From Blasia pusilla (lineage: Eukaryota): a stretch of DNA of 64,000 bases. The notes below the pieces were generated by a model. That model did no database searches, had not been told where the DNA came from, and saw only the letters and a list, made by a program, of their open reading frames with translations. Shown piece by piece: positions 1 to 46,655 of this stretch. Made by a program: the position numbers and the translations under genes. The stretch lies in NCBI GenBank assembly GCA_050084515.1, contig CM114271.1, positions 48,856,001 through 48,920,000 of the forward strand, given 5' to 3'. Positions within the stretch are counted from its first letter, which is position 1. Each line of letters begins with the position of its first letter.

Positions 1-3000
1 ATGACAATTATGCACTAATTGCTCTCTCATGCGACACCGTCCTATCGGGTTTCGTTTGTTCCTTCGTGTCGTCCTTTCGTCTCTACTTCTCTATGAAACG
101 TAGAAAAAGAAAGAAAGGAAAGGGAAAGGGAATGGGTCGTCGCCCAGCCCCGCCCCTAATCGTTATAGATCTATAATTATTGATAGACCTCTAGGGGTCT
201 ATCGATATTAATAAAGGGTAGGATGGTCCGCTGGCGGAGTTCTGGCACGTGTAAAACCATCGCAAAGTACAAACGCATAACACGTGTCGAAAATTGCACT
301 TGAACCCCGGATGTGTAATTGTCACTTTTATTCGGAATTCTTTATTCTAATCACATTTGGTACTTCTTAAGGGAAATCACAAGAAAGTATTGGAGAACAT
401 AGCATCCACTTATAGTTTACTCCCATTTACATGCCCCACATTCTAATGTTGGTGTCAAATGGCACTTACAACGCCTGGTATGCCTTTCTAATAGAAATAC
501 TAGTAATGAAAGCTTGCGTCTTGCTCTAACTTTAAACCTTCCCGGAGTTGTAGCCTTAAATATTCATGTAACACATATTCGAAATCCACCCACCTAGGCA
601 TGTTTTGAATAATCGATAAAATGCCACTCAAACGTCGATGCGAAGCCATCCATCATTCTAGGAACATGTAATGCACATGTCCAAGTTAGCGCATCAAATA
701 TGCGCTAACTTGGACATGGATGATTTTTCTTGAATGTAATCGTGCATCAAATATGACAAAAAGCGAGGATTTCGAACAGAAATTGACGAATTTGAAAATA
801 AAGAGGGGTCGATAATTACATTTCAGGCGAAGACGGGATAGTTACAATAGCCTCACGGTGTGTTGGTCTCCAGATAAATACAGGTCCATCCAAGCGTGGA
901 GCCCGATATTGGCTCCCCCATGTTTGACCCTTTGTTTTCAAGGGAGGAATAATCTTCGAACATAGTTCCAGAAGGCTCAATTATTGGACGATGCAAGAAA
1001 GGCATCAGATCTTTGGGGCACGACTTTTTGGAAGTGGAAAGTGAATTCAAAAGATACCCTTGAGGTTGTGGTGGGGTGGAGAAAGGAGGGTTTTGATTGC
1101 CCTTTAATTTCTCAATGTCCCCAAATCTTAGGTGCCTTTTTTCCCCCACTTATTCGAATCACATGTCACCAACTCTAATCCACTCTCTATGATTCGAGGA
1201 ATTTGTAGGAGCTATCTTTTCACATTGGGATGTGGTCATTTCCAAAATGGGAGGTTTTCATAATAATTCGTATTTTAGCAAGTACGAACATTTGTGTCAC
1301 CACGCTGTTGAGGCCTTTAATCATAAATATACCATATTTAATCTCTTCTCCTACTAATTTTCATATGTATTGATATTGTTTTATTATAGGATGAATTATT
1401 AACCTTTGTGGATATTTGGCCATGAAAATAAATTTGTCCCATCACGCCATACTCTTAGACGGGACATGGAAAATGGGACCAATAATATTTATTTGTTTGT
1501 AACATTTAAATAAAATATTATGCACAGAAAAAATTTTATTGTATACATCTTGGATTGTAGTTTATTATGGTGAAAAGGAGGGAAAGGGGATTTTTATGGG
1601 TGGGTGTAATGGAATGTAGGTAGGCAAATGGGTGAAGAAAAGGAAAGGAGCCTTTAACAAGAGGAAAGGATGATATGTGGAAAGTGGATGACTCGCCCCT
1701 TGTGCATTGCATGGACATTTCACAAAAATATGCATATTCCACGTGGACCAAATAATGAGCAATTTGCAAGGAAGATGTTATGAGGCCTTTTTATTTTGGT
1801 CCTTTTCCTTTTTATTTGGTCCTTTTTAGAATGAGGAATTTTGGCCTCGTGCTCTACTAGGAATAAGCACATTGGAAATTGCAAAAAGGTTGAAAACTTA
1901 CAACTTTCTATAGTCACACCTTCCCATGCAATCTAGGAGTTATGTTTTAGGAAACTCTCCATATCTAGGCCATATGAGTTGGGTGCGGGCCTAGGATCGG
2001 ACCATGGTCCTGGATGTAGGCTAAGGCGCGAGCCTAGATCGGGATATGCAAAAGGCTACGGGCTGGTTGTGGGCCTAGGCTTGGGCCATGCAGGGAGGGT
2101 GCGGCCCCCCTAGGGCTGGGATCAGACCTTAACATGGGCCTCGTGCATGCTTAAATGCGGGGTACAAGGATCATGTGTAGGTAGGGGCAGTCTCTAGGTA
2201 CGATTAGTTTCGGAGGCCACGTGATTGGTATTCACGAGTATAGAGGAAAGGGAAAGGTTAGAGTATAAGTGAATAGGGTAGTTATGTTAGGAAATACTTT
2301 AGTTGCAAATGAAGTGGGTGAAGAAGTTAGGAAAGTTGAAAAAGGATTAGGATTAGGAGAACAAAACAAGATTTGCTACTTGGTGATTAGTGAAGTTTGT
2401 TTAGGCATTAATAGTAAGTAGGGGTAGATGAGAAAAAAGGAGTAAGGGTTAATTTTCTCGGGTTAATTCCCTTCCTCCCATCCTCACCTATATAAACTTG
2501 CTCATTTTTAGTATTATCTCATAATCTCACTCCTCTTTCCATGTTTTCCTCTCTCTACTCTTTTGTATGAGATTATTCTTCTATAGATAGGTGAAAATAT
2601 GTTTTTCCAGGGGATAACCTTGATAATTTAATGTATCTTGGTTATCTAGGCTAGCATATAGATCTTCCTTGTTTATAATGAGTGTTCCAAGGTTTCTATC
2701 AAAGCATTCACAAAAAATATATTGTGCAATTTATATGTATTTCATAAGTTAATATATGTAATTATTGAGCATGTAATATTGTTACGAATTATCCAAATCT
2801 TTTTTGGGTAGGGATAGTATCTACTTGTCGTCATAAACAAAGCCAAAGAATTCCACCAGATTGTGAAGGAACATTGAAAAGAAGTACAAGAGGAAGGTGG
2901 AACAACGAGCAAATGGTAGTGTAAGTATTGTTCCTATTCGATGAGAGCATATAATAGCACGCGGATGGTGGAGCATTTCACATGAGAGAGATTAAAGACA

Positions 3001-5439
3001 AAGGATGGGAATCATGATACCCATCATGTCAAATTATGTATGAAGATCCCTCCTAATATGCAATGGAATCTCCGAAATATGGTGCTGATGGAAAATGGAC
3101 AGAGAAGGGAAGAGACCCTTGAGTGAAGTAGAGGAGACAAGGACATTCCACTTGGGTTCGTAGGAGACAAGAAATTCGCACTTGACAAGTTATGTTGAGG
3201 GCATCCTGGACTTCTTTTGGATTCAATCCATATGTAGAGAAGAAGTTCTCTGCCTCTTGATTTTGGAGATTTATGGCAATTTCATAAATAAGCTTTACTC
3301 GATTGTATACGTCAATGAAGCATATGAGCCAAAATTGCATCATCTCATCAATTCTTTGTTGATGTGGGATTTCTCCTTGAACCATCCTATATATGTTCAC
3401 TTTAGGTTTATAATTCGATCGGGGTCTACAATGTCCCAAACTGCAAGTGAAATTCTCATGCTCATGGGATCGCTTACAATACGAAGCTGGTGCATTACTA
3501 ACGGGTGTGTAGAAAGATGATATGGTCTCCTTGACCAAGATTTTCAATTAGCTAGACCCCTTCGTGATAGTAAAATGGCCTTTGGAAGACAATATGGATG
3601 CCAATAACAGGCTTTACAGGTGCGTGCCACACGAGATGTTACATAGTAATCTTCTACAGAAATTGGGGTTAAAGCAAATTTTTGTTTGGTGTGAGGATCC
3701 CTCCTTTAGGTACGATGAATTTCTTCATCAAATTAGGTATATCTTGCTCTTGTCTTCAAGAATTGAGAGATAATGGTGGTACCAACATCATACAAGCATA
3801 GTTGGTAACGTTTTAACCCAGTGCATTGTCTTATGTTGCGTGTAGAGTATGAGGCCCTAATTGCTCGATAGGTTGAAATAAGATCATATCAACCTCCTTC
3901 ATGCAAAGATCCTCTTGTAGAGTTATCTCAAGAATGAGTTCTCCCACGGTGCCCCTTGTTCTCCATTGTAGGAGTTCATCCATTTCTTGTTGTCATCTTG
4001 CCATGATGGATTCTTATGCCTTCCTCAATTGCTCCGTATGGTCTGCCATTATACATCTTTGTCTTCTATGTAGCTCATCTCTAGAAATTGACTCATTCCC
4101 CATGTTCTCCACCTCTCTCTTTAGTCTCTCATACTCCTCAAACAACTATTGATGCTTAATTCTCCTTTAAAATGTTCAATTTGGCTTCCAAATCGAATGT
4201 GCCTTGGGAATTATTTATTAAACTCTTCAACTATAATAGACGAGAAATAACCTTGCTCTTTTCCAAAGCACTCTCTCCATGAAATATTTTGGGAATAGCA
4301 CCGCTATGTAGAGGGAAATCAAAACTCTCTCTAGGTCCATCAAACTCATATTACAACCTAGATTGAGGTGATTCAAAACACCTCTAAAGTCTTCATTTTG
4401 ATTGGATTGGTGGGGATATTTCATCTTGGGCTTGCGGTATCGGTCTCTTATCTCTTCTCAAAGACCCATCCTCCACATCGCCATAATGAACCTCCATGTC
4501 CTTCATCAACTTTGTGACTTTAAGCTTAATGAATACCTTGCTTACTGACTCCTTCATAACTTGCAAGACCATTAAACAAGGCCCAATCCTTCTTCTAGTC
4601 ATCTTCTACCACTTTCCTTACAAAATCACCAATCACAAAATCTTGCCACTTGAGCTGTGACTTCTCCAACTCTGCCTTAAGAATATTGGGGTCATCGGCA
4701 TTATCTAAGTATGCCTTCAATTCATCCTTGGTAACAAATATGAAGAGTTTCTTCTTGTTCATCTTCTTAAACGTTGGCCAAATCGGTGTATCGTTGGGTT
4801 CTTCTCTTCTTCTTCCATCCTCTTTGTTATGAGGACTATGGTCTTCATGAGGTGGTAATTCCATCTTCAACTTGTCTTCTAGGGAAATCCAAAAGGAAAA
4901 GTTTATTACGAAAAGATTTTAATAATAGTGATACGATGATACATCATACATTCGTGATCATTTACAATCATTTAGAGTCACACATTCATATTTTTCAATC
5001 ATGTCTTAAATTCCTTGTGAAAAATTACAATCCTCAAATGGATTTAGAATCACACTATTATGGTAACAAAAATCCCATCACCATACATTTAATGCGTATA
5101 TATGCATGGTCTTAATCTTGAATCTATATTATCTACACCTAATATTTCTGCATCTGCCCTTATATATGCATGTGTGTACTCTAAGCTTTGCTATCAGAGG
5201 GGTTCATAGTCAGTTTACTTTTGAATCCTTTCCAAATAAGTCCAACTAATATTCGCTTAGGCATCCTTGACAGGGAGGTTGTATGTCACATAGTTCATTT
5301 TTTCACAATCATTCCTATGGCATAGATTTTTGTTACTATGCTAAAAGGAATATTTTTATACACTATTTTCAACTTCAATGAAATTTTCCTGACATAATTA
5401 TTATTTTTGTTTATGGGACCACCATCTCTCAGGTGAGAC

Positions 5440-5770
5440 TAAGCACTCATCATCCTATAAGGCATTTCCCCAATCTCCAACCTTGATGTATGCCTCAAAC
5501 TTGGATCCAAAATGGATGAAAGTATTCCTAGCATGAAGTTTGGGTATAAAAAATCCAAGCTTGTAGAAAGTCTCCATGGCAGCACCCAGGGCAACCACAA
5601 GCTGGATGATATTTGATGATACCTTGTGATAGGTGATCTTCTGCAACTCTCCTAAACCGCCCCCTTGTTCTTCAAGGTATGGCATGCTCGCATAGAATTT
5701 TCAGGTGCCCACCATTGCAATACATGTAGATGGCATGTGGTAGATCCTCAACAACCTTCCCATCATGGAA
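5440..5770 (-). pseudogene. Degenerate protein-kinase-like fragment
   Basis: Minus strand reads IYMYCNGGHL (subdomain V-like). After a frameshift it reads KLGFFIPKLHARNTFIHF...YIKVGDWG, resembling subdomains VIb and VII with the catalytic Asp lost. Confidence 0.5.
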
Positions 5771-8429
5771 ACTATTCCTCGATGTCAAATAGTGGCAAAC
5801 ATCCCTTCTCGCATCATTGATATTCTTGAATATAACTGAGATGCTTTCTTCAACACCTTCATGAAATAGTAAATATCTTCATTAAAGCCAAGGGTTTGGT
5901 TATTTTTATAATGATACATAATTTCGTATAAATATGAGCCCAAAGTATAGTATGGATCCTCTCTTACTACTACGTCCGAGCTAAAAATCTACATACATCC
6001 ACGTGGACTACCAACGTCTTTCCAACCGGAGTATCACGTCCCTTAAAAAGGCATTAAGCACTTTTAACTCAACTTTAAATCTTTGTAGTAGAGTTTTATT
6101 TGCAAACATGGGCTTCTCCTTCTTATTAACATATTGATATACACTCTCCCTAAGTTAACATCTTGTTGGGTTCACAATGCACTTGACCTCTTAGCCTCTT
6201 TGGCATTGACTTCACATATCCATGCCTTTGAAACTCTTGCACAAATCCTTACAATTCCAAGATAAATTCATATATGGAATCCATCCATAATCCTAAAAAT
6301 ATAGGACCGTCTCTTTTCTATGGGCAGCTCGAAAGTCTAGCCATACCTCTGTCACGTCTTTTAGGATAGATCGATGAGATCTAGTAGAGCGCCTTCGTGA
6401 GTAGTGGAGGACATGCTCAATAGGTCGAGGATCACCTGCTGAGGCCCTGGGAAACCTGAGAGAGCACATTTCCCCTTCGTTTCGGCTCATTTGGAGCCAT
6501 ATTGAAGAACTTACTATTTTAGGTGAGTACCATTTTGAGTATATGATCAATTTTCTAATTTTGGTAAGTATCCCTTAACCTCCTACATCAGGTCAAGAGC
6601 CAAGGAGGTGACTTGGGATCATAGGTTGCCATGGAGAGAGCTTGGGAGAGAGGAGGGATATACCTCAAGGAGAGAGAGCTCGAGAGCTCATTCTCTCTTT
6701 GTTGAACCTCTTGGCATAAGGCGGCGGAGCTATGGTCTTGCTTGCCTTCTCTATGTAACCCAAGCCTCTCATTAGGAGAGTGGGTTTGGTTTGACATTGA
6801 GAGAGACATGTGAGAGTGCACACATGTGAGAACTATGATGTTGTGAGAGAGATTGGATCTTATTTTACAAAGAGAGAATGAGTGAGTGGGAGAGCTTCAT
6901 GGGGGAGCTTCCTGGTCACTCGCTAGTTTTGTAGGTTGGGGTTCATGGGAGTGCTCACCGGAGCAAGAGCCGCTTACTTGTGATGTTTCCTTTGTCGATT
7001 TTTTGTGTAAAAGAGTGGCGCGCGGAAGCGCTGCCCAATTTTTGATAGGGATTGAGTATGGGGGCGGGTTGCCCCATGTTGGTGCTCTAGAGGGCACCAT
7101 GTAGCTTGCTGATTTGTGTTCTCACATGTTTTACATTTTTGTTGGGAGAAATCGGCGCGGAAGCGCTACCAAATTTTGTGTAGGAGAAAGAGACATTGGG
7201 CTTTACGACAATCCCTGTCAGTTTTTATTGGAATGTTCAATTTCAAATATTTTTTGACGCTATCATAGATCGTGAAGCTATGCACGCTGTGCAATAAATG
7301 GTGTGCAATTTGAGGTGTGAGAAAAATGTTATGATCAATCTTGCAAAACTGCCATTGTTAGGCAATTTTTAGGGTTAAATTGTTCAAACCCTAAACGAGC
7401 TGCGGCGGCGGCGGCGGCCGTCGCCATCATAGTTACGGTCAATGGTCAACCATCACTATCAATGGTCAATTGTCACCGTCCACCGTCCACCATCCACCTT
7501 CGTCGTCGCCTAGCGCTGCTTAGAGCCGCCTTTGTCTGTTGTCCACCCTTTGGTTGTCATTGCCGCCCATTACGGAGTGGAAGGTCTTCCACGACCACCG
7601 TTGATTCGCTGACTTGCACCGCCACCACGTACTTTGGTTTGGCCGCCACCGTCATCGCAGTTCGTCATCAACCATTGATGGCAGGTGACCTCGGGTTATG
7701 GTGTTTGAGTTTTCATTTCATGTTTCTATGTTGTGATTGGTAGCCGCTCAACGAAGATCGAGTACAGTGCCGTGACGCCCGTAGCCAGAACGCGCCGCCG
7801 ATTGCCACGCCGTGCCGCTCGTGGCCGCACCGCACCGTCTCGATTGCGTAGCCGCTCCTTCACTAAGAAGTAGAGTGTGTGAATTTCTGATTGAGGAGGG
7901 TATGCCACCGAGTTCCGCATCCCATTCTCGAGTGTCGTGCCGTTTGTAGCCGTTCCGTGCCGCCAGTGCTGCATCGGATCGTTGGACCTACACCGCATAT
8001 CGAGGAGGTTTGAGCAGCATCAGTATAGGAGGAGTACGACTTGCTGATTGGAGGAGTTGTCTCCATGACCGAGTTGGGGTCGAGATTTGCAGTTGCCGAG
8101 AAGCGACATCGACATTATTGTCAGGTTACCCTTATTGGTCTCTTACCTTGCACCTGTGAGGGATTCCCGGATGTTGGGAAGTTATTTGGGATATTGGGTT
8201 TTGTGCTGATGCTAGGAGCATCAATGATGTATGGGTTTAGGGGACATAGACCTGTGTGGGATGTCTAGAGTTGAGGATGGTTTATCGATGAGACGATGGA
8301 TCGGTTGATTTTCCGCACCACGTTGCTTGTTGTCGCACAACACCCGTCTCATTGAGAGAGTGTAGATTGAGTGCCGCATGTTTAGTTTGAGTGATTGAGA
8401 AATTACTCACAAGATTGAGAGTGATCTTG

Positions 8430-9698
8430 TGAGAGGGGCACGAGGGCCATCACGGCGTCCTTTCGGGATTTTGAGAGGCGAGGTAGTGGACCTGAGAGTA
8501 GCTCTGGAGGATTTACCCGGAGTGGTGCGAGGTTTCAAGGGTCTCCACGTGAAAGACCACCTCAATCTCCTTCTGTGTCTTCTTCAGAAAAGGGGGAGCG
8601 TGTAGAGAAGTGTGTTAGGCATCTACCATACACATTGAGTGGTTCTACCAGTTGGGCGTACGAGATGGACGACTGGGGTAGAAGACCTCGTAGGTTTTCG
8701 GGTGCTGTAGGCACTATAGAGCTACACAACTTCATTACGAAGTTTAGGAGTTGGTGTGACTCACAACAGGCTACGAACTCTAGAGAGTTCAACCCGTTTA
8801 TAGCTTGGAACGGTATGTTTGAGCATTTAGAGGGGGCGCCCATGGACAATTACCATGAGTTCTCCCACAGATATGCCCAGGAGATTAAGGCATGGTGACT
8901 CTACTATGACCCACACTATGTGTCATGGACGGAGCCGTTCCTTGATGAGGAGGAGGAGTCAGGAGAGGCTACTTCCTCTTCCACTAGTGATGTTTTAGGA
9001 GGGGTGACTCGCACTGGAGCTGTTGCACCATCTAGTGGGGTTCGTTCAAGGTTCAACTCCGTGGTTAAGTTCTTTGCTGAGTTGAGGGCAAGCTACTAGG
9101 GGGTACGGACGAAGAAGTTTCGGAGCATCCATGACTTCTAGAGGCACCCGGGTGAGAGTTTGCGTGAGGCTTACACTCGCTTGCGCCGGTTGATCAACGT
9201 CACTCAGGGGGTGACACATGCTCACGCTATCGAGTCATGGTACGCGATGTTGGACCGGACCCTACGGACACGGGTGCGGGAGGGGTGATCCTTATGAACA
9301 CCTCCCTCGTTGAGAGATGTTTTTAGGACCGCCGAGAACATTGAGCGCAACATGGCGAGGAGAGCGTAGCCACCATGGGTTCTGGGCAAGAGCAGTCATG
9401 ATTGTCTGCACCACCAGTGCACGAATGTGGACTCCGAGATAGGTCGATACCGGGAGGCCGTGGCACAAAACCTGCGCCTTCATATGCGGCTCAACACCAA
9501 CCGCCTATGATTACTTGTTGGTCATGTGGTGGAGCCCATCATGAGCGCGATTACACTCGTCAAGGTCATGGACGTGTGCCTCAGCATGGAGGAGGAGATG
9601 GTGTTGCACCAAGAGGTTATCATTGTAACTATTGTCAGAGGTATGGTCATACACACGCCAGGTGTTTCAATTTACACCCCGAGTTACGTCCGGACTGA
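8430..9698 (+). pseudogene. Gag remnant with zinc knuckles
   Basis: Capsid-like RPRRFSGAVGTIELHNFITKFRSWC (ORF 8575-8898) and F*RHPGESLREAYTRLRRL (~9135-9195). Zinc knuckles CWSCGGAHHERDY (degenerate) and CNYCQRYGHTHARC in ORF 9402-9698. Start is approximate. Confidence 0.8.
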
Positions 9699-10499
9699 GG
9701 GCCAGAGAGGGCACCAGAGCGAGTAGCCGGTTCGGGTGGGCCCAGAGATCGTGCACAAGGTGGTCCCATTGGGGGACGAGGAGCTGGAGTTGCCCAACAG
9801 GATGATGGAGCTACCCGTGGAGGAGGTAGAGTCCTACCACCTAGACGCGTCAAGGGAGTCGTCGGGTGTGAGGCTAGGATGGCTGCTCAGATACAATAGC
9901 TACAAGAGCAGATTGCCGATATGGCATTGAGGTTACCCAATGCCAAATCCGTGGCATCGACATCATATGGAGTAGCCAGAGATATGGAGGATCCTGGTTG
10001 GATGTGCGGGGTTGCCCAGATGGAGGCCGCTGTAGTTGTGACGCGTGGAGCAGCCATAGAGTTGGATCCACAACGAGGGGAAGCCACGAAACAGACTAGG
10101 CTTCCTCAATATTTCACATTGTCTGAGGCAAAGAGGACCCCATCGATGAGTCCTAATCATAGTTTCTGGAGAGTTGGTGATGTTGTTGGTGTGCAGGCAC
10201 GGAGGACGATGGGAGAAGCGAGTGCGACGACTCCTATTGTTGATGCTCAGGAGGGGCATATGTCGAGCATGTCATTGGGGGCGGCCACCATTGTATACGC
10301 GCTCCTTTATTTTCTGCTTCCGATGTTATGACGTTGGGAGGTATGCCCGCCGAGGTTTTTCGGCTGGCTGCTACGCTATGTGAGCATAGAGTTGGAGTTC
10401 CTGCATCACGTTCAAAGGTGATTGCAGAGGAGGTGATGGACCTGCCCTTGGAGCGGATGGTGGGGCTGTCCTCGTCAGATTCATGGCCAGCTACGACTG

Positions 10500-10960
10500 C
10501 TAGGATGGCGGAGATGCCCGTTAGACCCGCGATAGAGCGTGCCATGGCTTCTCCTAGTGTTATGTTGCTGGATAACCGAGGAATGGTCTTTGAGTTGGTG
10601 AGTCCCGGAGGTAGAGCTTTTAGTTTGCAGTGCGTCTTGTTGGACTCCGGAGCGCAACCCCTGACGTTGGGGATAGCATAATTCAGAGGATTGGGCTTGA
10701 CGAGAGCCGATGTGGAGCGTTGTCCATTCTGAATACAGAAATCCTTGGGTGGAGCGAGTACCACACAATATATCAACCGACATGAGGTCATGGTGAGGAT
10801 TCGCTCGGGACATCCTACAGATGAGTCTGTGGTGTGCGCCGAGACGATAGTGATTGATGTGGAGTCCTATGACGTCTTGGTTGGTGGAGCAATGTTATAA
10901 CCGATGGGGTTTTCCCTGGATTACTGGGAGTAGTCAACGTCCTACAGACCAGGATGGCAC
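10500..10960 (+). pseudogene. Retropepsin-type aspartic protease remnant
   Basis: Active-site CVLLDSGAQPL (~10630-10660) and second motif SYDVLVGG (~10865-10888), with internal stops. Confidence 0.8.
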
Positions 10961-11349
10961 TGAGATGATGGATGCCTTAGCTCATTACCCGTTTGATTCA
11001 CAGGTGTAGTGATCGAGCCACGGCGAGGAGAGATGGCGACCTTAGCAGCATTTAGCAATGCCATCACTTGGCCTAGTGATTTGATTGAGGGACATGTCCA
11101 TACAGAGGATACTCAAGTTCCTGACATTTCTATGGAGAGGAGTGTAGCTGCATCAGTCCGTGGAGGAGAGGTGCCGCTTTGGGGCTCGACTGAGGAGATT
11201 CGATGCTTAGCCACTAAGCATGTGTAAATCGCGTGGAGCAAGATGTTTGCACGTGAGTGTGACGGGTCAGAGGAAACCCAAGTAGGCAGGAGTGCTGCTA
11301 TGACCCCTTTGAATACCACCCCGATTATGTGGTGCATCCCAGAGAAGGG

Positions 11350-12300
11350 TATGCGGGTGTTGGATCTCTTTGGAGGGATCAGCACTAGGTTAGCTGCTAT
11401 TTTGCACGCTGGAATGCGCGTGCAATAGTACCCGTATGTGGAGATTGATGATATTGTGAGGCGTGCTTCACATCACCATGTGGCCCTATTACGCCTCCGT
11501 TTTCCCAACTTGTTGTATGGTTCTGCCATTCAGGGTTACCAAAGTTCCCTACCGAGGGACATTTCATTGTAGGGAGCAATGACCAAGTCTATGGTCCCTA
11601 CTTGCTCCCATAGACTTGGTCATTGCTGGTTGGCCGTGTCAGTGCCAATTGAGTTCTGGACAAGGTAGCGGGTAAGTTGACACTCGGTCCTGGTTGTTTT
11701 GGGAGATGATGCGGATCTTGCAACATTTACAAGAGCATCAGCCTTATTCTCCAGCATACATTTTGGAGAATGTGCCAATTTTGGGCGATTCGAGGTCCCG
11801 CATGGTGACGAGTGCACATCAGGTGCATGCATGGATGGCCTCGGCAGTGTTATTAGATGCGGCAAGTGTAGGTTCTAGAGCACACCGCCCGCGTCTTTGG
11901 TGGACCAACTTGAAACCACATGAGGTATTGCGGAGGGCTTATGCGAGAGTGGAGCGTCCCTCCGATTTGTTGGTGGATTCTATATTGGATCTGGGTCGTC
12001 GATCACAGGCAATGAAGCACGATGATCAACCATCGTTGACTGTGGTCAATAGGATTGGTAGGCCACAGGCAACCTTTCCCACATTGGTGAGTTTTCCCGC
12101 TTCCTATGCATTTAATGAGGCCAGACTTCGATTAGTTTGGGATGACCAAGTACAGAGGTTGGTGGAGCCCAACGCCAATGAGCGAGAGCGAGCAATGGGA
12201 TTCCCCATAAGAGTGATGGCAATACCGTCACTATTAGAGGCATTACGACGTTATGTCTTGGGTCAAGCAATGGACCTGAACTGCTTGACATAGATTTTCA
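11350..12300 (+). pseudogene. C5 cytosine DNA methyltransferase domain embedded in the retrotransposon polyprotein
   Basis: Motifs in canonical order: I RVLDLFGGIS (~11353-11382); II YVEID (~11435); III RDIS (~11555); IV catalytic DLVIAGWPCQ (11613-11642); V DTRSWLF; VI YILENVP (~11757-11777); VIII SRAHRPRLWWTN (~11874-11909); IX ERERAMGFP (~12180-12206); X LGQAMD (~12258-12275). Stops at 11426, 11570, 11673 and 12291; one +1 frameshift near 11575-11600. Confidence 0.92.
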
Positions 12301-12619
12301 GCTTAGGAGTAGTTGAGCAGCGTCGTTTGAGGATGCGACAGATCACAACTGTTGCGTTGGTGAGCCCCATGCCTACCGAGATGGTTGAGGCAATGGCTGG
12401 GAGCGAGACCCGAGGAGATCGACACACCAGGGGTGATCGGGAGAGACACCCTTGGACTTCTTGGGATTTTTTGCAGGTACGCTAGGAGATGATAGCCACA
12501 ACATTGAGCATGATTTCACGTATTGCACGTGGAGATAAGAGTTCTATTTTCCGAGACGGGGTTGCACCATAGCAACTACCAACATTCGCACCAGAGAGTC
12601 CTGTTGTAGTCACGATGGA

Positions 12620-14050
12620 GACTTGGGAGCCAGATATGGGCCCTAAGTTGACAGGAGGAGAGCAACGTCAGATACACCAGTTCCTTAGGAGTTATAGGAG
12701 CTATTTTGCATTTAGTATGCATGATTTGGATACGCTGAAGGGTCCAGGGATCCGCATTGAGTTATCGAGTGACACGCCGTTCTTTTGACAACCCTACAGG
12801 TACAGTGACATGGAGAGGGCTCTGATTCAGAGTAGGAGCCAGGACTTGGTTGGAGCAGGACTAATGGAGATATCGCATGGAGAGTATGCATCTGCCAGTG
12901 TCATGCCCGCCAAGAAGGATGTGCATGGCAACTGGACGGAGAGGCGAATCTGTGGGGATTACTGACCTATCAATCGGCAGACGAATTCCGATAGGTATGC
13001 CATGCCCATCCCTCAAGAGATCTTTGATGCGATTGGGCATGCAAAGGTCTTCAATTCATTGGATTTGCGAGTCAGATACCATCAACTGCCTATCAGATTG
13101 CACGACCGGCAGAAGACGGCATTTTGGGGCATCGATCCTCACGGAAAGGATTGTTTGTACCAGTGGCGGTTCTTACCATTCGGGTTAAAGAATGCCCCAG
13201 CTGAGTTTCAGAGGGTGATGGATAGGATCTTGGCAGGTCTGGATTTTTCTAGGTGTTATATTGATGACATCGTAGTCTTTAGCGCCATGGTTGAGAAGCA
13301 TGAGCGACATCTAGAGGAGGTGTTTCGACGATTGCAGTTACATGGGCTCAAGCTACATCCAGGCAAGTGCAAGTTCTTCTATGACCTGATTGAGTACTTG
13401 GGTCATACGATATACCTTGGGGGCCTTGGTGTGCAACAAACGAAGGTAGAGGCTATTTCATGCATTCCATGCCCTAAAGATGTGAGTCGAGTTTGTGCAT
13501 TCATGGGATTGGCAAACTTCTATCGATAGTACGTCAAGGGTTTCACTTCGATTGCAAAGCCGCTAACCTTGATGACCAAGGTGGATCAAGAGTGGCACTA
13601 GAGGGATGAGCAAGAGAGAGCATTTCATATGCTCAAGGATAGATTGACGTTCGCGCCCATATTAAGGAGACCGATCAAGGGACGTCCTTTCTAGTTGCAT
13701 ACCGATTGGAGCATGTTGGGGCTTGGAGCTGTGCTTGTCCAGCATGACGATGATGGTAGAGAGTTCATGGTGGCTTATGCTAGTTGCTCGAACAACGCTA
13801 CAGAGGCAAAGTATAGCTTGTATGAGGGTGAGTGCTTGGCTGCAGTGTGAGCTGTCGCACATTTTAGATGTTATCTATTCGGAAATCCCTTTACCATCAT
13901 TACTGATCATCAGCCACTTAAGTGGTTGATGGAGTCCGAAAAGCTGATAGGGAAGCTTGCGAGGTGGGCTCTTTTGTTGCAGGAGTATGACTTCCAGGTG
14001 GTGCATAGATCTGGGACGCTCAACCAAGATGGTTTGAGCCGTAACCCATG
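12620..14050 (+). pseudogene. Ty3/Gypsy reverse transcriptase and RNase H remnant
   Basis: RRICGDY*PIN, YAMPIP, SLDLRVRYHQL, LPFGLKNAPAEFQR, YIDDIVVF, KCKF...EYLGH, FMGLANFYR. RNase H: F*LHTDWS..GLGAVL, EGECLAAV, TDHQPLKWL, ARWALLLQEYDF. Confidence 0.95.
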
Positions 14051-14419
14051 CCCGAGTCAGCAAGATATGATTGGAGCTCGTTGGCATGGTGAGAGTGATG
14101 AGGAGTTGCTGCCAGTATGCCATGCGTCAGCCTATTTGGGCTTGTTGGCTATGGAGAGCCAGATTGCAGAGACTTCGATGGCAAGGTCTGATGGAGAGTC
14201 CTTAGATCCTAGAGGCCGGTGAGGAGACGAGAGGTGGCCGAGACATTCACGACGATGGAGTGGTCTTGGAGTACCTGCATATTGGCAGCGTCGCGAGCAC
14301 AATGGGTGCTAGAGAGCGGGATTGGATCCTACAATGAGTCAGACGGTTCCGATGGGAGGGCGCACATGTGTTGCGAGTGTGGGAGGATGGTAGAGTGCGT
14401 GTAGTGCCTCATCCTTTGC

Positions 14420-15480
14420 AGAGAGCACGTTTGATGCGTCATGCCCACGAGGAGTTGGGTCATTTTAGAGTGAAGCGGACGTACAACTTGCTCCAGATTT
14501 AGTATTGGTGGCGAGGCATGCAGACTGACGTTCAGAAGTTTGTTGTCAGATGCATAGTGTGTGATCGAGTCCAAGCATCGTTCAATGCTCCAACTCCACA
14601 GTTGCATCGAATTCCGATCATGGGTTTAGGTTAAAGATGGAGTTTGGATTTTGCAGGACCTTTGCCTTTGACGGAGCGCCATAGTCGTTATGTGTTGGTG
14701 ATGGTCGAGCACTTATCGAAGTGGATAGAGTTGGTTGCATTTCCTGACAAAGCGATTCATGGAGTAGCGTATGCCTTCCTAGATCGAGTGTTGAGTCATT
14801 ACGATGCACCAGCTGAGGTGTTGACAGACCAGGGTATAGAGTTCCGCAAGGAGTTTCAGGCCCTGTGTGATCAGGCACTGATCAACCACCGCACTACTTT
14901 GCAAGATCATCCTGAGGCGAATGGACTAGCGGAGCATGTTGTGCAGACAGTAAAGAGAGGAGTACGCAAGTATGGCTTATAGAGAGGTCACCTAGGAGAT
15001 TGGGACCTTCAGTTGCCGTGGTTGGCGATGGGATACAGATTTAGCAGGCAGGCATCCTTAGCGTCTTTCTCACCGTACTTGTTGCTTTATGGCCGAGAGC
15101 CAGATTTACCACCGGCCATTCGACGAGATAATGGTGAGATGTTGAACCTTGATGACCCTGATATATGGATGCGAGCATGTTCTTAGAGGGCCGAGTTGTT
15201 TCAGAGAGTGATGCTCATGGCGTTTGAGAACTTGGCGATTGCGCAACATCGGGATACGTTGAGGTATGCAATTATTTGGGGAGGTGGTTATCAACCTACT
15301 ATCTGGAAGTTTCATCAGGGAGACTATGTCTACTTGCAGCAAACGGCACCCACGACGTTGGATGTGACTACAGGGCGTACCATCTTGAGAGTGCGTGAGG
15401 TTTTTCCATCCGGTGTTCTCTTATTGGAGGGACGCGATGGTATGGTTTGGAAGGACCATATGCGTAATTGTGCACCATGT
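14420..15480 (+). pseudogene. Integrase remnant (HHCC, DDE core, C-terminal extension)
   Basis: HAHEELGH...CIVCDR zinc domain (~14440-14565); DFAGPLP, VLTDQG and HPEANGLAEH catalytic motifs (ORF 14644-14982); FSPYLLLYGR (~15067). Confidence 0.92.
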
Positions 15481-15540
15481 CATCTTCCGAATATTATCGG
15501 TATAGTTGATCCGAGCTTAGCAATAGTTCCTGCACGCTTA

Positions 15541-15684
15541 CGGTGTATGTTGTGTGGTTCCGCCCATGGTGCAGCCACTATGCTAGTCTGTGATGGGTGT
15601 TTGAGAGGATGGCATATGGCATGTTTGACGCCATCTCTCACTTGGGTTCCTCACGGATAATGGATGTGTCCCAGATGTACATAG
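15541..15684 (+). pseudogene. PHD finger (C4HC3) at the integrase C-terminus
   Basis: In frame with the integrase tail: RCMLCGSAHGAATMLVCDGCLRGWHMACLTPSLTWVPHG*WMCPRCT*. Full Cys4-His-Cys3 spacing plus the conserved Trp; one premature TAA at 15658-15660. Confidence 0.9.
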
Positions 15685-15866
15685 AGTAGGTAGTTTTACA
15701 TTCCGACTTGTGTCTGTGATATGGATGACAAGAAGGCGACTAACGATGGGGCCACATGAGCACCCGGCCTTCTTGCTCTTAGCATCCGAGAGATGTATGT
15801 CATGGTAGGTAGGGATAGATGGCTATCTGGAGTTAGAGGGACCTAACCACCAACTAAGGGGGCGAT

Positions 15867-15992
15867 TGTAGATATTTTGGTACTTCTTGTCTCGTTGTTT
15901 GGATGCCATGAGTGAGCATGGGATCGTGCGTGTTTGTGTGTGTGTTCGGTGACAGTGATGTATGTTGTGTAGCGATGTGTATGCGCACGACA
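15867..15992 (+). repeat. Short (126 bp) 3' LTR-type segment of the MTase-Gypsy element
   Basis: Starts TG two bases after the PPT and ends ACGACA. Its 3' part (GATGTGTATGCGCACGACA) resembles the minus-strand LTR end at 46656 and sequence at ~20040-20090. Confidence 0.7.
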
Positions 15993-16007
15993 CCTCTCTT
16001 ACAACCA

Positions 16008-19000
16008 TGTTAAAGTCATTCTTGGAATGACTCTTTGCCTCTTGGTTCTATCACTCAACTCCATTCAGTTATCTCATATCCCCAAAGACTCAACATCACT
16101 AAAAAAATAGCTCGAAGGAAGGAGATAGGAAATTTTTCTACACAACCAAAAAAAGAAAATGGAACTAGATACGTATGAATCTTGAGGTGGAGATTGGGAA
16201 GTAACAAAAAGATAAAAATTGGTGATGCTATACACATGGTTCGGTCTATACAAACATGGATGATGGAATGTGGAATCTAGATTTAGGGTTTATCACTCGA
16301 AGGGAATATATGCATGCTCAGATAAGTTTCTTTGATCACCTCCATATTCTTGATGTACATGTGTTAAGGTAAGCCAATGAAACACATCTAAACTAGAGAC
16401 GATGAATCAAAAATCTCAAGATCACCAAACAAGTTTGGTGACACAAGAGAATTCCCCACTCAAAAATCTTCACCTAAATGAATAAATCATAGTTCTCTTA
16501 AGATACAACAAGGAGCGCAAATCTCCAAGTTGGTTAGAAACAAAATCTAACTATCCCTAAAGACACGCAATGGATTTCCCCAAAATTCCTAGCAACCTTG
16601 AAAGCCCAAAGCTCTCAATGCACCAATATAAATTTGAGACCTTATTTGAGGATCTTATCCAACACTTATTATACTCTTAAAGAAAAGGAGGAAAGCATGA
16701 GGGAAATGGGGTCAATATGGGTTAATTAGGGGGTAATCCTCCACTTGTCAGCATTTTGAGGCCCACTTGTAGGCCTTTTGCTTATGAGTTTATGTTTTCA
16801 ATCCATTTTAGGTGTTGGGAAGGGGGGAGGTGGATTCACACCTAGCCTCAACAAATGACAACACACCACATGTTTGCATGGAATTTGTGGGCTGCGGGTT
16901 AAACATGTGTTGAGTGCGGGCCTTGAGAATGAATTGAAGGCTTCCATGTGGCAGCCTCTGATTGGTTGGAGGGAAGGGAGCAAGACGTGGGCCGGCGTGC
17001 GGTCATTATAGCATATCTACACAAAAACCTTAGTGATAAGGTCCTATCTATGCCACCTTAGCTATGTACTAGAAAAATTTCCCTAGCGCTAAACTCAACT
17101 TCCACTAATGGAATCACCATCTTAAGGTTCAATGCTTGGGTTGGGATGGCTCTTGAGTGTCCTTTTGCATACATCACAACATGAGGTTGCTCCATGTTGA
17201 TTACTCGCACTCCCAACCTCTCCATCGCCTTTGGATCTAGGAAGTTGCAAGTTGCCCTTAGGTCAATCAAAGAAACCATGGATTTCCCATAAATCAGTTC
17301 CTCAACTAGAAATAGATACTTACTATCATCTCCTTTGAAGGCTCATCACCTTCCCTCAACTAGTTCCTTGAACGCTCCTGATCAAACACGCTAAACGTCA
17401 AGGCTTTAGTCTTCCTTGCCAAGTTAATGTCCTCCCACTTGCAGATTGCTCTTGCTTTCTTGAAATGACCAAGATCACTGCACACATAAAACCCCCTAGT
17501 GCCACGTTCAATCTAGGTTTCCCCTTGCTTGGAACTTGGTGTTTTTTGATGTTTGAACCTTTTGGGTTCTGACCCCACATGCGGCCGTGTCTTATTAGGT
17601 TTCCTCTTATTCACCCCTCCAAACGGTGCCTTTGACTTCATAATCAGGGCCAACTTGCCTTGCTTCTCAAGACTCATATCACTTGCCACAAGTTGAATAG
17701 CCTTGTCAATGGACGGCATAGCGCTTTATTTTCCCAAACTTGGTTGATGGCATAGCGCTTTTCTCCCTGAATTTCCATTTCAACTTGGGTGGCATTTCCT
17801 CCACAAAGTTGAAGATTTGATTGGCCTCTAACATATCTTCAATCACTACCAATGTCTATTAGAACTTAGTAATGAAACTCGCAATCAAGCCTTCCAACTA
17901 CATTTTCCATAACCAAATTTTGGCTTAGGGAGCTCGATCTTGAGGTGCCAAACATCTCCTCGGTTTTGAGGTTAGCATCCCCGTAATTCGACTCCATGGT
18001 CTTTTTGTCCTTACAAAATTCTTGGTACCACGTGAGTGCATATGCTTCTAATTTCAAAGAGGACTCAACTCCCCACTTGGTTGTTGGCCTTCGCAAAAAT
18101 ATGTTCTACCTTTGTCACCCATTGATTTAGGCGCTTGATACTTATCTCGCCCCTATACATGGGTAACTCCTTCCTCCCTTCTTCCAATCAATACCATGGG
18201 TATATACTAAAGTCGAGCTACATACATTTATGGTCTCTCCAACCATATAATCCATCTAGGCTTGTAGTTGTTTCTTCAATGCCTTGAAGATGGCGCGCTG
18301 AACCTCATTGAAACTCACGGGCATTTGAATCCCCGAAAACTTCCTCTTCACCGGCGATGACTCCTTAGGTTCACCCATTTGGGTGTTCCATCCCCCAAGG
18401 TCTAGTTCCTCCGACGAGTCGCCAAGAGTCTTGGGCGGAGAGTTTTTTCCGATCGATATTTTGTCCCCCAAACCCTCATCTCGATCAAGTAACTCATTGA
18501 ATCCACTTATATCCTTGAAGTCTTGTGAGAGATTCAACTCAATAGGCTTATTATCCACATCCCTCAAATCTCCCTCAAGCCAAAGCGGCTTGAGATCCAT
18601 GACCTAAACCCCTGTGGGGCTTGTCTTCATGTTTGGCCATGCTAATCGTTGCTGCCAAAATTTCCCACTAAACTATTTAATGATTTTCTCTAATGCCATG
18701 TTAGAGAGTCCAACCTCTTCTTTACCTAGCTTCATCTCGAAGTACTCCCAATCTTGAGTTTTGCAAGTGGAAGACTTAGATTGAGTCCCAAAAACTCGAT
18801 CGGTTGCGTGTTTTGTAGGTAGATGCATGAGAAGCTACCAAGTAGTAATCCGATCCAATCTCCCCAATTGCATAGTGTCTCCATAGGAGGCCTCTTCCCC
18901 AAGTCTTGACCAATCTCCCCAAGTTGCTTGCCTACACTGGAGTACATCGTGTGCGCAATGTGCCCAATTCCTGAATGTGTGTCTTTTAGCTCAAACCTTA

Positions 19001-19750
19001 AACACGGCCAAACACACATATATCACGGTGAGTTCATGGTTCAAGGGCTTGAGCGGGTTGAGAGGGAGAGTGTCCCCCCTATAGGTACTTTTGAGGTTCT
19101 CTAGAGAAACTCCATCTTTCCCATTTTCCCCCTTGGGCCCTTAAGTTTGCCCCTCAATCCAAACGTGTTTTGTAATTCGCGAACCGATATTTGACTATTT
19201 ATCCATCAAGATGGCTTGAAAGAGACTTCTTGTACCTTATGCAAGTCTTGGCTCATCAAATGCACCTTGGATCATGGACTTTAGTTTCATGTATTTCATG
19301 GCTAGCACCCATCTTGACTCTCGTTTGGTGTCTCATTGTTGTCTTGCCGCCCTCTGCGTTTTGTGACTAGTCTCGTAGCGTCTGCCCATCTTGACTACTC
19401 GCATGTTCCTTACTTCTTACTCTTGACTTGGCACTTGGCTCCAAGGTCTCAAAACTTGCTTTCCTTGCCTTTGACCCCATAAGTAGTTATGCCCCTTTTT
19501 CACTTGAGGCTAATCACAAGATTTTAGCGGGTCTTGCCCAACGTTAGTCTCACGGCTAAACCCTAAACCCTAAACCCATTCCACTACAATCTCTTTTACT
19601 CCTTACTTGCTCTACTTGCTCTATGCCCTTCCTAGTCTCATGGCTAGCTAGTCTAGGTTTTGAATTACATGGGTCATACCTAGATCTTTCCTCCTTGGAC
19701 CCGTGATCATGACTCATTTCCCAAGTCCCTGCTAGTCTAAGCGCCACAGA
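16008..19750 (-). mobile_element. Decayed Gypsy-type element(s): LTR ~18699-19750, PBS-like site, gag-protease remnant, LTR-like block ~16008-17010
   Basis: Minus strand ...TAACA TGGCATTAGAG (degenerate iMet PBS, ~18688-18698). Gag-like LKLEAYALTWY (ORF 17866-18096) and protease-like VSLIDLRATCNFLD (ORF 17058-17279). A second TAACA-TGGT junction lies at ~16008. Confidence 0.7.
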
Positions 19751-19759
19751 CTTAGCTAT

Positions 19760-20090
19760 TTGCGATGTGAGGGTGCACCCTATGAATTGTTTGACGGTGA
19801 AGGCTTGGGCGATGGTGATTCGCACTAAGTTGTATAATGTTGGGATTGGTGGTGTCATGTTTTATCCTATGGAATTCACGTTGGACTATTGGTAGGAGTC
19901 AGCCCCTTATCCTCGAAATTCGCAATCATACAATGGCTCTTTCAGTCATTGTTAGTGTTGGTGGTGAGCAATTGGCATGGGCATAGTGGAGATTATTGCA
20001 ATGAAATTTTATGATTCATGATATGTGTGTGTATGTTTGCATATTTGTGACAACGATGTATGTTTTGTAGGGATGTGTATGTACATGACT
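19760..20090 (+). mobile_element. Third, very degenerate fragment of the MTase-Gypsy family (protease end plus LTR end)
   Basis: VIRTKLYNVGIGGVMFYPMEFTLDYW*ES aligns with VIDVESYDVLVGGAML*PMGFSLDYWE*S at 10850-10935. 20040-20090 resembles 15935-15990. Confidence 0.65.
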
Positions 20091-41000: not shown

Positions 41001-42597
41001 AGTTTACACTTGGCCTTTCCCATGGTTGGCCAGAAAAAGCACGATGAATGGGTCCCCATTGCTATTGACTCCCCATCGGAGTCAAAGCTTGTGTATGAGG
41101 ACTCCATCCGGCATGAGATCCACATGGTAGAGATGGTTGGGTATTGCCTATCCAGGGGCGTTCTACAACTCCAGGTTGTGACCAAGATATGCCTCCAAGC
41201 CATTGGCCTTGAGCGGTAATGCGTCCAGCTTACCTCCCACTTTTTCCTGAATCACGTGCCTTATAATTGGCATGGGATTTGTGGAATTCTCTCACTCCAA
41301 TAGCCTGAGCATATGAAAAGAGAAATAAAAGTTAGTGTACTATAATAAATAAACACATAGACTGGAAGAATCATGTATCCCACACAAAATCTTTCTGAAG
41401 ATGGTACACAACATATCATTGTAGTTACCCTTTTGACTTGGGTTGGATGGAATGTCGGCCCAGTATCCTTATTCACAAATGGAGGATCAGGTACATCTTC
41501 CTCCTCATCATTCTGGTATTTTGAATCTTCAGTTGGCATATAATGTGGATCTTTCATTTTATTATCCTTTAGGCTTTCAAGCATTGAAGGACCTATTAAG
41601 CTCTCCAAGACCTTTGATGTTAATCTCCAACTTTGTCGCTTTTCCACTACCTCTGCCACTATTGCTCTACAACATGAGGCTTTCTTGGATGCCTTTGCTA
41701 GTCTCAGCCTTTCCAAACAATGATTTCATCATCAATCATCTATGTAAGATCATGCAAGTCTCATTTTCTACGAATAAGGAAACTACATGCAAGAAGGAAT
41801 GGAAAACCATGCAATATTATTGCAATTCACATCTCATGCAAGGTAGTGCACTACTTATTATGGGGGAATAGCACCAAGAATTTATGCTGCTCTTCTTTTG
41901 TTTTCCCTTATCTTCCGTGCCCGTTCTTGTTCAATTGAGAGTAGATCATGAAGGTCCTTATCCAGTAGGTCTGGACTCTCAAATCCATCACCAACATCGA
42001 AGCTCTCCAAGTTTGAAGAGTTGGTGGGCGTATAAGGATGTCTAAAGTTGTCATTATCTTGACCATCTAGCTCCATTGTAATGTGCAGAGGTGATGTTTC
42101 TCTCTCGTAAGTCATTGCCTCTCTTTCAAAACCCTTAGATGTTTCTTGCCCTTTTATACTCAAATCAGAAGCAACCACATTTTTGCTGAGATCTACCCTC
42201 TCCATGGCTGCACTCAGATCTGAAAGGTGCCCTATAGAATCTGGTCTACACACACTTGATATATTACTACCTTCTCTGACTATAGATGCAGTGGAAATCC
42301 TACTTTGCTTCTCGTAGTTCTTTTCTTGGCCCTAGTCAAGTTCCCTTGTCTGCCCTATCTTATCCTCTTGTTCATGAGAATTTGCACATTTCCTTTCACC
42401 ACAAGAAACAATACTTTGATTACCATTGATATTATCCTCTCTAGGACATTCTCTACATCATTGGCCTCTGGAACGTCCTCACGACTGGCGTTCAGCTCTT
42501 CGGGAGTCTCCGTCTCCTCTATAGCTTCACGGTCCGGCATTGGTTCCTCTCTTGGTTCACGTCGCTTCTTGGGTTGTTCTCCCTCGATGAGTTCCTA

Positions 42598-43484: not shown

Positions 43485-43689
43485 CTTGGTTCACGCCGCT
43501 TGATTGGGCGCTTCTTGGGTTGTTCTTCCTCGATCGCCATTTTCAAGCCAACTCACTCAGATCTCCTCCTCGTTTCTTGCGTCCCTCCTCGAGCATCTGA
43601 GTCTAGCCGCTACCTTGAGTTTTCCCAAGCGTCCGGTTGATCCCACGACCCCAAGTTCTCGCTCACCAAGGATTAGCTCTGATACCACT

Positions 43690-45710: not shown

Positions 45711-45712
<2 letters not shown>

Positions 45713-45806
<94 letters not shown>

Positions 45807-45822
45807 AAGAAAGAAAGAAAGA
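45713..45822 (+). repeat. (GA)n microsatellite followed by (GAAA)n
   Basis: Directly visible in the sequence. Confidence 0.98.
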
Positions 45823-46513: not shown

Positions 46514-46655
46514 AGCTTAAATTCCAACCCAGTAAATATCAAGTATGGTCTCCTTCATATCTTCCAACAATCTTCACCCCATCTACTCTTACCATCTACA
46601 TCAAAGGAGTTTGGGTTTTTGGGGTCCTAATTGGCTTCATTGACTATAGCTCCAA
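46514..46655 (+). pseudogene. Non-LTR RT remnant, right part, resuming after the CACTA insertion
   Basis: LKFQPSKYQVWSP (L-x-x-N-x-x-K type motif) and GVWVFGVLIG (the 'LG.P.G' motif) are the segments expected to follow the left part. Confidence 0.65.

Follow-up and report, generated by a model that had tools for sequence, protein, structure and literature searches.

A decayed Gypsy retrotransposon copy in Blasia pusilla with the remains of a DNMT3-type cytosine methyltransferase between protease and reverse transcriptase

Organisation of the element

We examined a 64,000-nucleotide stretch of the genome of the land plant Blasia pusilla (GenBank assembly GCA_050084515.1, contig CM114271.1, positions 48,856,001 to 48,920,000 of the forward strand), referred to below as the window, which contains a Ty3/Gypsy retrotransposon copy encoding the remains of a C5 cytosine DNA methyltransferase (DNMT). 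The remnants of one gag-pol reading frame, with all of its domains on the plus strand, extend from approximately 8.6 to 15.7 kb. Pfam matches, tblastn alignments and motif positions reveal the pol order typical of Ty3/Gypsy elements, namely protease (PR), reverse transcriptase (RT), RNase H (RH) and integrase (IN), together with a gag region bearing CCHC motifs, and the complete arrangement is gag-CCHC-PR-DNMT-RT-RNaseH-IN-PHD. The methyltransferase (MT) is non-permuted and is encoded at 11330-12293, between the active-site motif LDSGA of the protease (10640-10654, frame 2) and the YIDD motif of the reverse transcriptase (13257-13268, frame 3).

Upstream of the DNMT, a gag-like region with five in-frame stops (8662-9354, frame 1) was located by tblastn with Marchantia and Sphagnum polyproteins, to which it shows 39-50% identity. 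It is followed by two CCHC zinc knuckles (CWSCGG and CNYCQ, 9516-9638), recognised as motifs and coinciding with the position of PF00098 in relatives, and by the aspartic protease (10295-10681, frame 2), identified from its active-site motif and from tblastn to relatives. The C-terminal part of the protease and the linker to the DNMT (10844-11329) align to residues 140-300 of the Calypogeia protein P0003; this segment is conserved in the family, yet is its least constrained part (pN/pS 0.64). Downstream of the DNMT are the reverse transcriptase (12624-13529, with RVT_1 at 12966-13529, E 1.2e-26) and RNase H (13851-14222, RT_RNaseH, E 4.8e-14), which together are 64% identical to Marchantia P0005, and then the integrase core (14569-14982, with rve at 14635-14982, E 8.5e-11), which is 71% identical to Sphagnum fallax P0028. 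The C-terminal region of the integrase (15187-15681) ends in a PHD finger (CMLCGS, from 15544; PF00628, E 2.4e-6) and shows 62% identity to Marchantia P0084, which likewise ends in a PHD finger. No chromodomain was matched at the integrase C-terminus in the Pfam scan of the window pieces, the PHD finger being found instead.

The methyltransferase domain and its affinity to DNMT3

The N-terminal part of the DNMT (11330-11578, frame 2), recognised by alignment and by the motif FGGI at 11369-11380, is interrupted by stops at 11426 and 11570. The remainder (11610-12293, frame 3, with stops at 11673 and 12291) contains WPCQ (11631-11642), ENV (11766-11774), HRPR (11883-11894) followed by LWWTN (11895-11909), RAMGFP (12189-12206) and LGQA (12258-12269). 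We take these to represent motifs I, IV (with the catalytic Cys in PCQ), VI (ENV), VIII, IX and X of the C5 methyltransferases, in canonical order. An initial annotation of the window, made from the sequence without database searches, had placed such motifs intron-free and on one strand between LDSGA and YIDD, and every motif that it named was found where it had been put.

A read-through translation of 11565-12560, in which stops were entered as X, matches PF00145 with an E value of 7.6e-9 (35.9 bits against a cut-off of 22, profile positions 62-157), as the initial annotation had expected once the stops were read through. The score comes from the motif IV-VIII part only, and the N-terminal read-through containing motif I gave no Pfam match on its own. 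When the raw open reading frame (ORF) pieces were searched, five of the nine (two DNMT pieces and the protease, gag and zinc-knuckle ORFs) had no Pfam match at E≤0.01. Alignment to intact relatives is nevertheless collinear and intron-free from protease to RT, passing through 10844-11578 in frame 2 and then 11601-12497 in frame 3, the latter segment being 57.5% identical to Calypogeia P0003 over 299 aa.

Among proteins of solved structure, the window read-through is most similar to DNMT3A chains (E 8.8e-7), ahead of DNMT3C, DNMT3B and M.HhaI. A family profile was built from 18 family DNMT domains, in the alignment of which the catalytic motifs are nearly invariant, and was scored against the PDB. 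DNMT3A ranked first (86.5 bits, E 1.8e-23), followed by DNMT3B (E 1.7e-21), the tobacco and Arabidopsis DRM enzymes (E 1.2e-13, over profile positions 63-191 only, the part that is still collinear), DNMT2 (E 6e-8) and M.HhaI (E 3e-7), a ranking that bears out the DNMT3-like wording noted earlier from the motifs. No DNMT1 or CMT chains appear among the 60 PDB matches of the profile, and for the Calypogeia domain an Atlas model finds chordate DNMT3A clusters with a template modelling (TM) score of 0.75. As judged from this similarity ranking, which is not a rooted phylogeny, the domain is closer to DNMT3 than to DNMT1, CMT, DRM, DNMT2 or the bacterial enzymes. The PWWP, ADD or land-plant domain of unknown function (DUF) of host DNMT3 had no Pfam match in the window pieces or in the relatives, where the flanks are protease and RT.

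The methyltransferase is a trait of the family

The window DNMT matches 32 longer proteins at E≤1e-3, the best of which, from Calypogeia fissa, shows 63% identity. Next come approximately 20 gene models of Marchantia polymorpha and proteins of Sphagnum, several of which combine PF00145 with RT and RNase H. Marchantia P0005 and P0017, for example, have RVT_1 and then RNaseH after the DNMT, and the same domain order recurs in the proteins of Marchantia, Calypogeia and Sphagnum. Scanning of JGI metagenome contigs revealed 185 relatives, of which 80 were kept as loci. These were picked by likeness to a query of the "PR-DNMT" type and therefore sample that arrangement and no other; 78 of them are collinear with GAG-PR-MT-RT-RH-IN-PHD, the two exceptions being adjoining elements, and in 44 of the 80 the protease lies directly upstream and RT directly downstream of the DNMT. 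Two full relatives are flanked by pairs of direct long terminal repeats (LTRs) that are 94% (L007) and 92% (L031) identical and lie approximately 8.7 kb apart, start to start.

The initial annotation had interpreted the methyltransferase as an integral part of a Gypsy pol, located between protease and RT, and as a family trait and not a nested insertion. Both views are upheld, the former by the collinear alignment and the metagenome loci, the latter by the same order in relatives and by the lack of termini or repeats around the DNMT in our searches of the window. On this comparison of sequences the DNMT is an inherited part of pol in this lineage and was not inserted into the window copy.

A PHD finger ends the integrase in both of the DNMT-bearing groups described in the next section (as in the window element, Marchantia P0084 and loci L007, L012, L013, L029-L031 and L033 onward). 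The combination of a DNMT3-type catalytic domain with a PHD reader recalls the design of host DNMT3, in which an ADD domain accompanies the catalytic domain; we offer this as an idea only.

Relationship to Klebsormidium elements and a second architecture

KnitGypsy-Dnmt3, whose Gypsy-type pol includes a DNMT3-type domain that is intron-less and non-rearranged, has been described in the charophyte alga Klebsormidium nitens (de Mendoza et al. 2018, Nat Commun 9:1341, PMC5890265; what we say of this paper refers to its accessible text). The initial annotation had cited this paper for DNMT-bearing retrotransposons in dinoflagellates and charophyte algae, and the text bears this out. Database proteins of K. 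nitens show the same junctions as the window element. GAQ93235.1 (P0108) has zf-CCHC at residue 297, Asp_protease_2 at 598-691 and the DNMT from 833, KFL_000540020 has a DNMT followed by the start of RT, and two more proteins were found, one of which (KFL_014710010) combines protease and DNMT. Identity between the DNMTs of the bryophyte group and those of K. nitens is approximately 31%.

When 1.84 billion representative proteins were searched with the family profile, 15059 matched at E≤1e-3, of which 3032 reached E≤1e-10 and 516 reached E≤1e-30; the highest-ranking of the 15059 include K. nitens proteins (E 4e-127 and 3e-108). The 217 proteins with a near-complete DNMT that were examined comprise 38 with the order PR-DNMT-RT (type A), 110 with RT-RH-DNMT-IN-PHD (type B) and 69 that are too short to assign. 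Type B constitutes a larger sister group of Gypsy elements in which the same DNMT3-like domain is placed between RNase H and integrase (RT-RNaseH-DNMT-integrase-PHD). Many of its members are intact polyproteins of 1649-3456 aa, and examples from metagenome or Logan contigs include P0030, P0112, P0125, P0130, P0134, P0138 and P0151. No description of the type B architecture was found in the literature searched.

A tree of 205 non-identical DNMT domains (FastTree, LG+gamma, midpoint-rooted) places all 37 type A sequences in one clade of 77 with a support of 0.99 and no type B member inside, whereas type B falls in a clade of 128 (support 0.80) that is devoid of type A. Every named liverwort and moss sequence joins the window sequence in a clade of 17 leaves (support 1.0), and the two K. 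nitens sequences pair elsewhere within the type A clade (support 0.91). The initial annotation had looked to trees against charophyte retrotransposon DNMTs; ours, which consists of the DNMT domains of elements only, does group the window with K. nitens. Given the same junctions and this grouping, the window element belongs to the published Gypsy-DNMT3 lineage and, as far as a DNMT tree with no outgroup can tell, shares both insertion point and descent with the K. nitens elements.

Copy number and transcription in the host

Host reads (one DNA run, three RNA runs) were matched to the window at ≥80% likeness. Summed over both orientations, DNA depth reaches 923-3520 per bin between 7000 and 16192, with 1158-2360 in the four DNMT bins, compared with about 20 at 16193-16500; these depths give a ratio to the flank and not a copy count. 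Depth is continuous across PR-DNMT-RT. The repeated element thus occupies at least 7000-15992 on the plus strand, high depth extending from 7000, the start of the stretch covered, to a right end at approximately 15992, behind which 3469 host DNA reads come loose.

In the DNMT bins of the three RNA runs the depth of first mates on the minus strand is 17-88, as against 0-6 on the plus strand, a bias that indicates sense transcripts if the library is of the usual stranded type. Most RNA reads are less than 90% alike to the window (4950 of 6823, 4872 of 6970 and 5244 of 7221), whereas a likeness of at least 99% is reached by only 2-11 reads per run, so that the transcripts originate mostly from other family members and not from the window copy. 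The family is of high copy number in the host and is sense-transcribed across the DNMT.

Two joints were observed in the RNA reads. One (12737 to 13809) skips 1071 nt and occurs in 37 RNA reads and no DNA reads; the other (13826 to 13982) skips 155 nt, has GT..AG ends and occurs in 18 RNA reads and two DNA reads. These may represent spliced or internally deleted transcripts of the family.

Decay of the window copy

The gag-pol frame of the window copy is split into plus-strand segments at 8686-9354 (frame 1), 9420-10154 (frame 3), 10295-11578 (frame 2), 11610-14105 (frame 3) and 14239-15681 (frame 1). The DNMT alone (11330-12293) contains the four stops listed above and one frame change, and its reading frame is therefore not intact. 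On this evidence from the sequence the window copy is a pseudogene of a PF00145 member and is unable to make the enzyme.

The frame change in the DNMT, between motifs I and IV, coincides with an inverted duplication at 11575-11627, which consists of two perfectly complementary 20-nt arms (11575-11594 and 11608-11627) separated by a 13-nt loop. The downstream arm codes for the conserved residues just before motif IV, and the upstream arm, its reverse complement, has replaced the coding sequence of the family. The resulting opposite-strand joint (11574/11608) is present in 27 host DNA reads, and DNA depth dips in the bin 11438-11754. The duplication has the look of a template-switch lesion. Near three of the four frame changes of the window copy, most family DNA reads differ from it in length by one letter, which fits lesions that are private to the window copy or its close kin.

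Selection on the methyltransferase

Substitution ratios (dN/dS, nonsynonymous over synonymous, by Nei-Gojobori) were calculated for the window and 31 close loci, with codons taken via tblastn alignments to Marchantia P0005 and stops skipped. Median values are 0.37 for RT (218 pairs), 0.37 for RNase H (96 pairs), 0.53 for the DNMT (442 pairs), 0.58 for the protease (204 pairs) and 0.71 for the PR-DNMT linker (295 pairs), all of them inflated by decayed copies and blurred by saturation. In uncorrected comparisons of the window with the 31 loci, the proportions of nonsynonymous and synonymous differences (pN and pS) are 0.155 and 0.685 for RT (ratio 0.23), 0.26 and 0.75 for the DNMT (ratio 0.36, with pS saturated in 22 of the 31) and 0.46 and 0.73 for the linker. 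The order of constraint, with RT tightest, then the DNMT and then the linker, suggests that the DNMT was kept by selection during the history of the family, less tightly than RT. A comparison of dN/dS across copies, foreseen in the initial annotation, is thus favourable in that the DNMT lies below the linker and unfavourable in that it lies above RT, with saturation making the estimate rough.

Second copy and other remnants in the window

A second, more diverged and truncated copy lies on the minus strand at 47612-48501 and was detected by protein alignment. It comprises the protease (with LLDSYA at the active site), the linker and the first residues of DNMT motif I. Read from 48501 to 47612, it aligns to residues 100-390 of Marchantia P0005 and then ends, with 27-47% identity to Marchantia proteins. 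Beyond 47612 a loose tblastn search for DNMT remains gave only chance-level matches (E>1), and self-blastn of the window found no second copy at the nucleotide level, the relationship being visible in protein alignments only. The initial annotation had described here a diverged copy with the same protease-to-methyltransferase junction; the junction is indeed the same, but the copy is a stump that ends at the first residues of motif I. The stump is evidence for the junction of protease and DNMT, but not for a whole second DNMT.

The sense strand of the element between 8000 and 16000 has an excess of G over C (GC skew approximately +0.2) and of T over A. The region of the minus-strand second copy (42000-48000) shows the mirror skew, so that this composition belongs to the family and not to the locus.

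Other remnants are scattered through the window. A short third fragment at 19776-19949 (plus strand) is similar to the C-terminal portion of the element's protease region (34-52% identity to Marchantia proteins in alignments of 33-58 aa) and is a remnant of another Gypsy copy. A 232-aa ORF at 39679-40377 (minus strand) resembles a plant transposase-associated (CACTA-type) domain and ORFs at 48723-49784 (plus strand) resemble a Helitron/PIF1-type helicase, both judged by eye from the translations. Beside the second copy there is a direct repeat of approximately 920 nt (86% identity, 43772-44689 and 42595-43484), which may represent LTRs or a tandem part of another element.

Discussion

We consider it very likely that the window element is a Ty3/Gypsy LTR retrotransposon copy, old and dead, that inherited a non-rearranged DNMT3-type C5 methyltransferase and belongs to the Gypsy-DNMT3 lineage, an assignment made from sequence comparison. 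The explanation taken as a whole, in which such a dead copy is combined with a proposed function for the DNMT, appears to us probable. Several observations weigh against it. Relative to the Marchantia and Sphagnum polyproteins the window copy has 32 in-frame stops and at least four frame changes. No LTRs were found in the window by self-blastn, by a repeat search of 4000-20000 or by a low-stringency comparison of 5500-8700 with 15600-19000; the depth of the family ends at approximately 15992, some 280 nt after the PHD finger and roughly where the 3' LTR of relatives starts, and at least the 3' LTR has apparently been lost from the window copy. Decay is also usual among its close relatives in the metagenomes, only four of the 80 loci having an ORF of at least 600 aa. 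The DNMT tree is devoid of host DNMT3, DRM or bacterial outgroups, the protein searches and the 150 profile matches listed having yielded only element-like or unnamed proteins, so that a single capture is argued from the shared junction and the clade. The dN/dS of the DNMT exceeds that of RT, in an estimate that is rough with synonymous sites saturated in 22 of 31 comparisons, and KnitGypsy-Dnmt3 gave no de novo methylation in yeast, a result that its authors called inconclusive (PMC5890265).

KnitGypsy-Dnmt3 is the closest of the systems compared, although our comparison is based on K. nitens database proteins and on the text of the paper and not on the domain map of the paper itself. The CCHC-protease-DNMT and DNMT-RT orders in these proteins are those of the window element, and the DNMTs form one clade. 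The differences are that the host is a charophyte alga and not a land plant and that the DNMTs are only about 31% identical. The K. nitens elements have DIRS-like repeats according to the legend of Figure 4c in PMC5890265, whereas two relatives of the window element (L007 and L031) have plain direct LTRs and none were found for the window copy itself. K. nitens has few copies according to the same text, in contrast to a DNA depth here that is about 100-fold or more that of the flank (923-3520 as against about 20); and that text makes no mention of a PHD finger, which the window element possesses.

With host DNMT3 (animal DNMT3A/B/C, plant DNMT3 and its rearranged paralogue DRM) the window DNMT shares the catalytic fold and the order of motifs, DNMT3A being the best solved relative, but it lacks PWWP and ADD domains and introns, forms part of a retrotransposon polyprotein and does not have the permuted order of DRM. 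SymbioDIRS-Dnmt3 and SymbioLINE-Dnmt of Symbiodinium are also retrotransposon-borne DNMTs, and the former is DNMT3-like and methylates CG de novo in yeast; these elements belong, however, to the DIRS and LINE classes and are treated as independent acquisitions (PMC5890265). Chromoviruses are Gypsy elements that likewise bear a histone-reader module at the end of the integrase, although their reader is a chromodomain and that of the window element is a PHD finger. PHD fingers in retrotransposons are mentioned as known in the accessible text of PMC6673714.

The possibility that this is a new kind of element does not stand, because the K. nitens proteins have the same order and junction and group with the window in the DNMT tree. 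The Gypsy-DNMT3 kind was already known, and the proteins could already be found in public databases, either as hypothetical proteins or under the label "DNA (cytosine-5-)-methyltransferase". The accessible part of a 2026 preprint (10.64898/2026.05.21.726589) refers to "streptophytes (Gypsy-DNMT3)", citing the 2018 work. Our literature search, with subscription papers and supplements outside its reach and hence only a weak indication of absence, yielded no account of Gypsy elements with a DNMT from bryophytes or any other land plants, and none was found in the accessible texts of PMC5784723, bioRxiv 2021.02.12.428880, PMC12344493, PMC11982613 and PMC9033089. The search also found no papers for six Marchantia gene identifiers. 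What is new here is the host range among land plants (Marchantia, Calypogeia, Sphagnum and the present host), the abundance and sense transcription of the family, the constant PHD finger of the integrase and the large type B group.

Recurrent capture of DNMTs by retrotransposons is documented (de Mendoza et al. 2018, PMC5890265), and it might be supposed that bryophyte Gypsy elements took a host DNMT3 domain independently of the Klebsormidium elements, the identical position being a coincidence. The low identity between the two groups of DNMTs and a tree that is unrooted with respect to host DNMT3 would be compatible with such convergence. We nevertheless regard it as very unlikely, since K. 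nitens shows the same CCHC-PR-DNMT and DNMT-RT junctions, both groups share the idiosyncratic sequences RxWWTNL, PTFVS, EPNxxERERAMGF and LGQAMD, their DNMTs belong to one clade with a support of 0.99, and the K. nitens proteins are among the best of the 15059 profile matches. An event or artefact confined to this copy, whether a fragment of a host DNMT or a mobile DNMT gene nested in it or a chimera of the assembly, has a negligible probability. The small inverted duplication shows that local rearrangement did happen inside the DNMT, but nothing was found in favour of a one-off origin, which is refuted by the domain order of the relatives in named genomes of three bryophyte genera, by the 78 collinear metagenome loci and by the continuous, thousand-fold read depth across PR-DNMT-RT in an independent DNA run. 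It is further opposed by the stump elsewhere in the window, which has the same junction, and by the absence of repeats or termini around the DNMT in the self-blastn and repeat searches.

If descent within the Gypsy-DNMT3 lineage is accepted, the function of the domain has to be considered separately. We propose, tentatively and by analogy, that the DNMT acts in methylation of the element's own cDNA or insertion. In intact members the element protease would cut the DNMT out of Pol, inside the particle or the pre-integration complex, and the freed enzyme would methylate cytosines de novo on the new cDNA or at the integration site. The PHD finger of the integrase would read histone tails to pick the site, as chromodomains do in chromoviruses. 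Between them, these activities would determine the epigenetic state of each new copy, the purpose being either to mimic host-methylated DNA or to achieve self-limitation. This scheme draws on retroelement biology and on the hypothesis of de Mendoza et al. (PMC5890265). It is also conceivable, if in our view rather unlikely, that within the same lineage the DNMT does not methylate the element's own DNA and instead has an RNA target, acts in trans on host chromatin, serves as an S-adenosylmethionine (SAM)- or DNA-binding integration module or is drifting cargo. Such alternatives would accommodate the lack of DNA methylation by KnitGypsy-Dnmt3 in yeast and the higher dN/dS of the DNMT relative to RT, and RNA methylation was raised by the authors themselves for the LINE-borne DNMT (PMC5890265). 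They agree less well with the retention of the catalytic PCQ, ENV and RxR both in the diverse members of the clades of 77 and 128 and in intact polyproteins 1.6-3.4 thousand aa long, with a DNMT that is clearly more constrained than the adjoining linker, and with de novo CG methylation by SymbioDIRS-Dnmt3, a DNMT3 in another class of retrotransposon (PMC5890265).

A transposon that carries the type of enzyme used by hosts to silence transposons is a striking case of a host-parasite arms race, and its Gypsy form has so far been documented in one charophyte alga only, where the bench test was inconclusive. For annotation, our findings carry a warning that PF00145 matches in bryophyte proteomes labelled "DNA (cytosine-5-)-methyltransferase" can be fragments of transposon pol and not host methylation genes. 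One may picture, though we are more doubtful of this than of self-methylation as such, an ancient streptophyte Gypsy-DNMT3-PHD lineage that moved onto land together with its hosts, persists in liverworts and mosses (Marchantia among them) and is still transcribed from many copies in the present host, whose genome would then be a reservoir of de novo DNMT3 activity on cDNA and, in trans, on the host methylome, with the larger type B sister group beside it. Abundance and transcription in a land plant imply that the architecture is old and successful and not a curiosity of one alga, and its presence in Marchantia polymorpha gene models brings the question of retrotransposon DNMT3 enzymes into a tractable model with good methylome tools.

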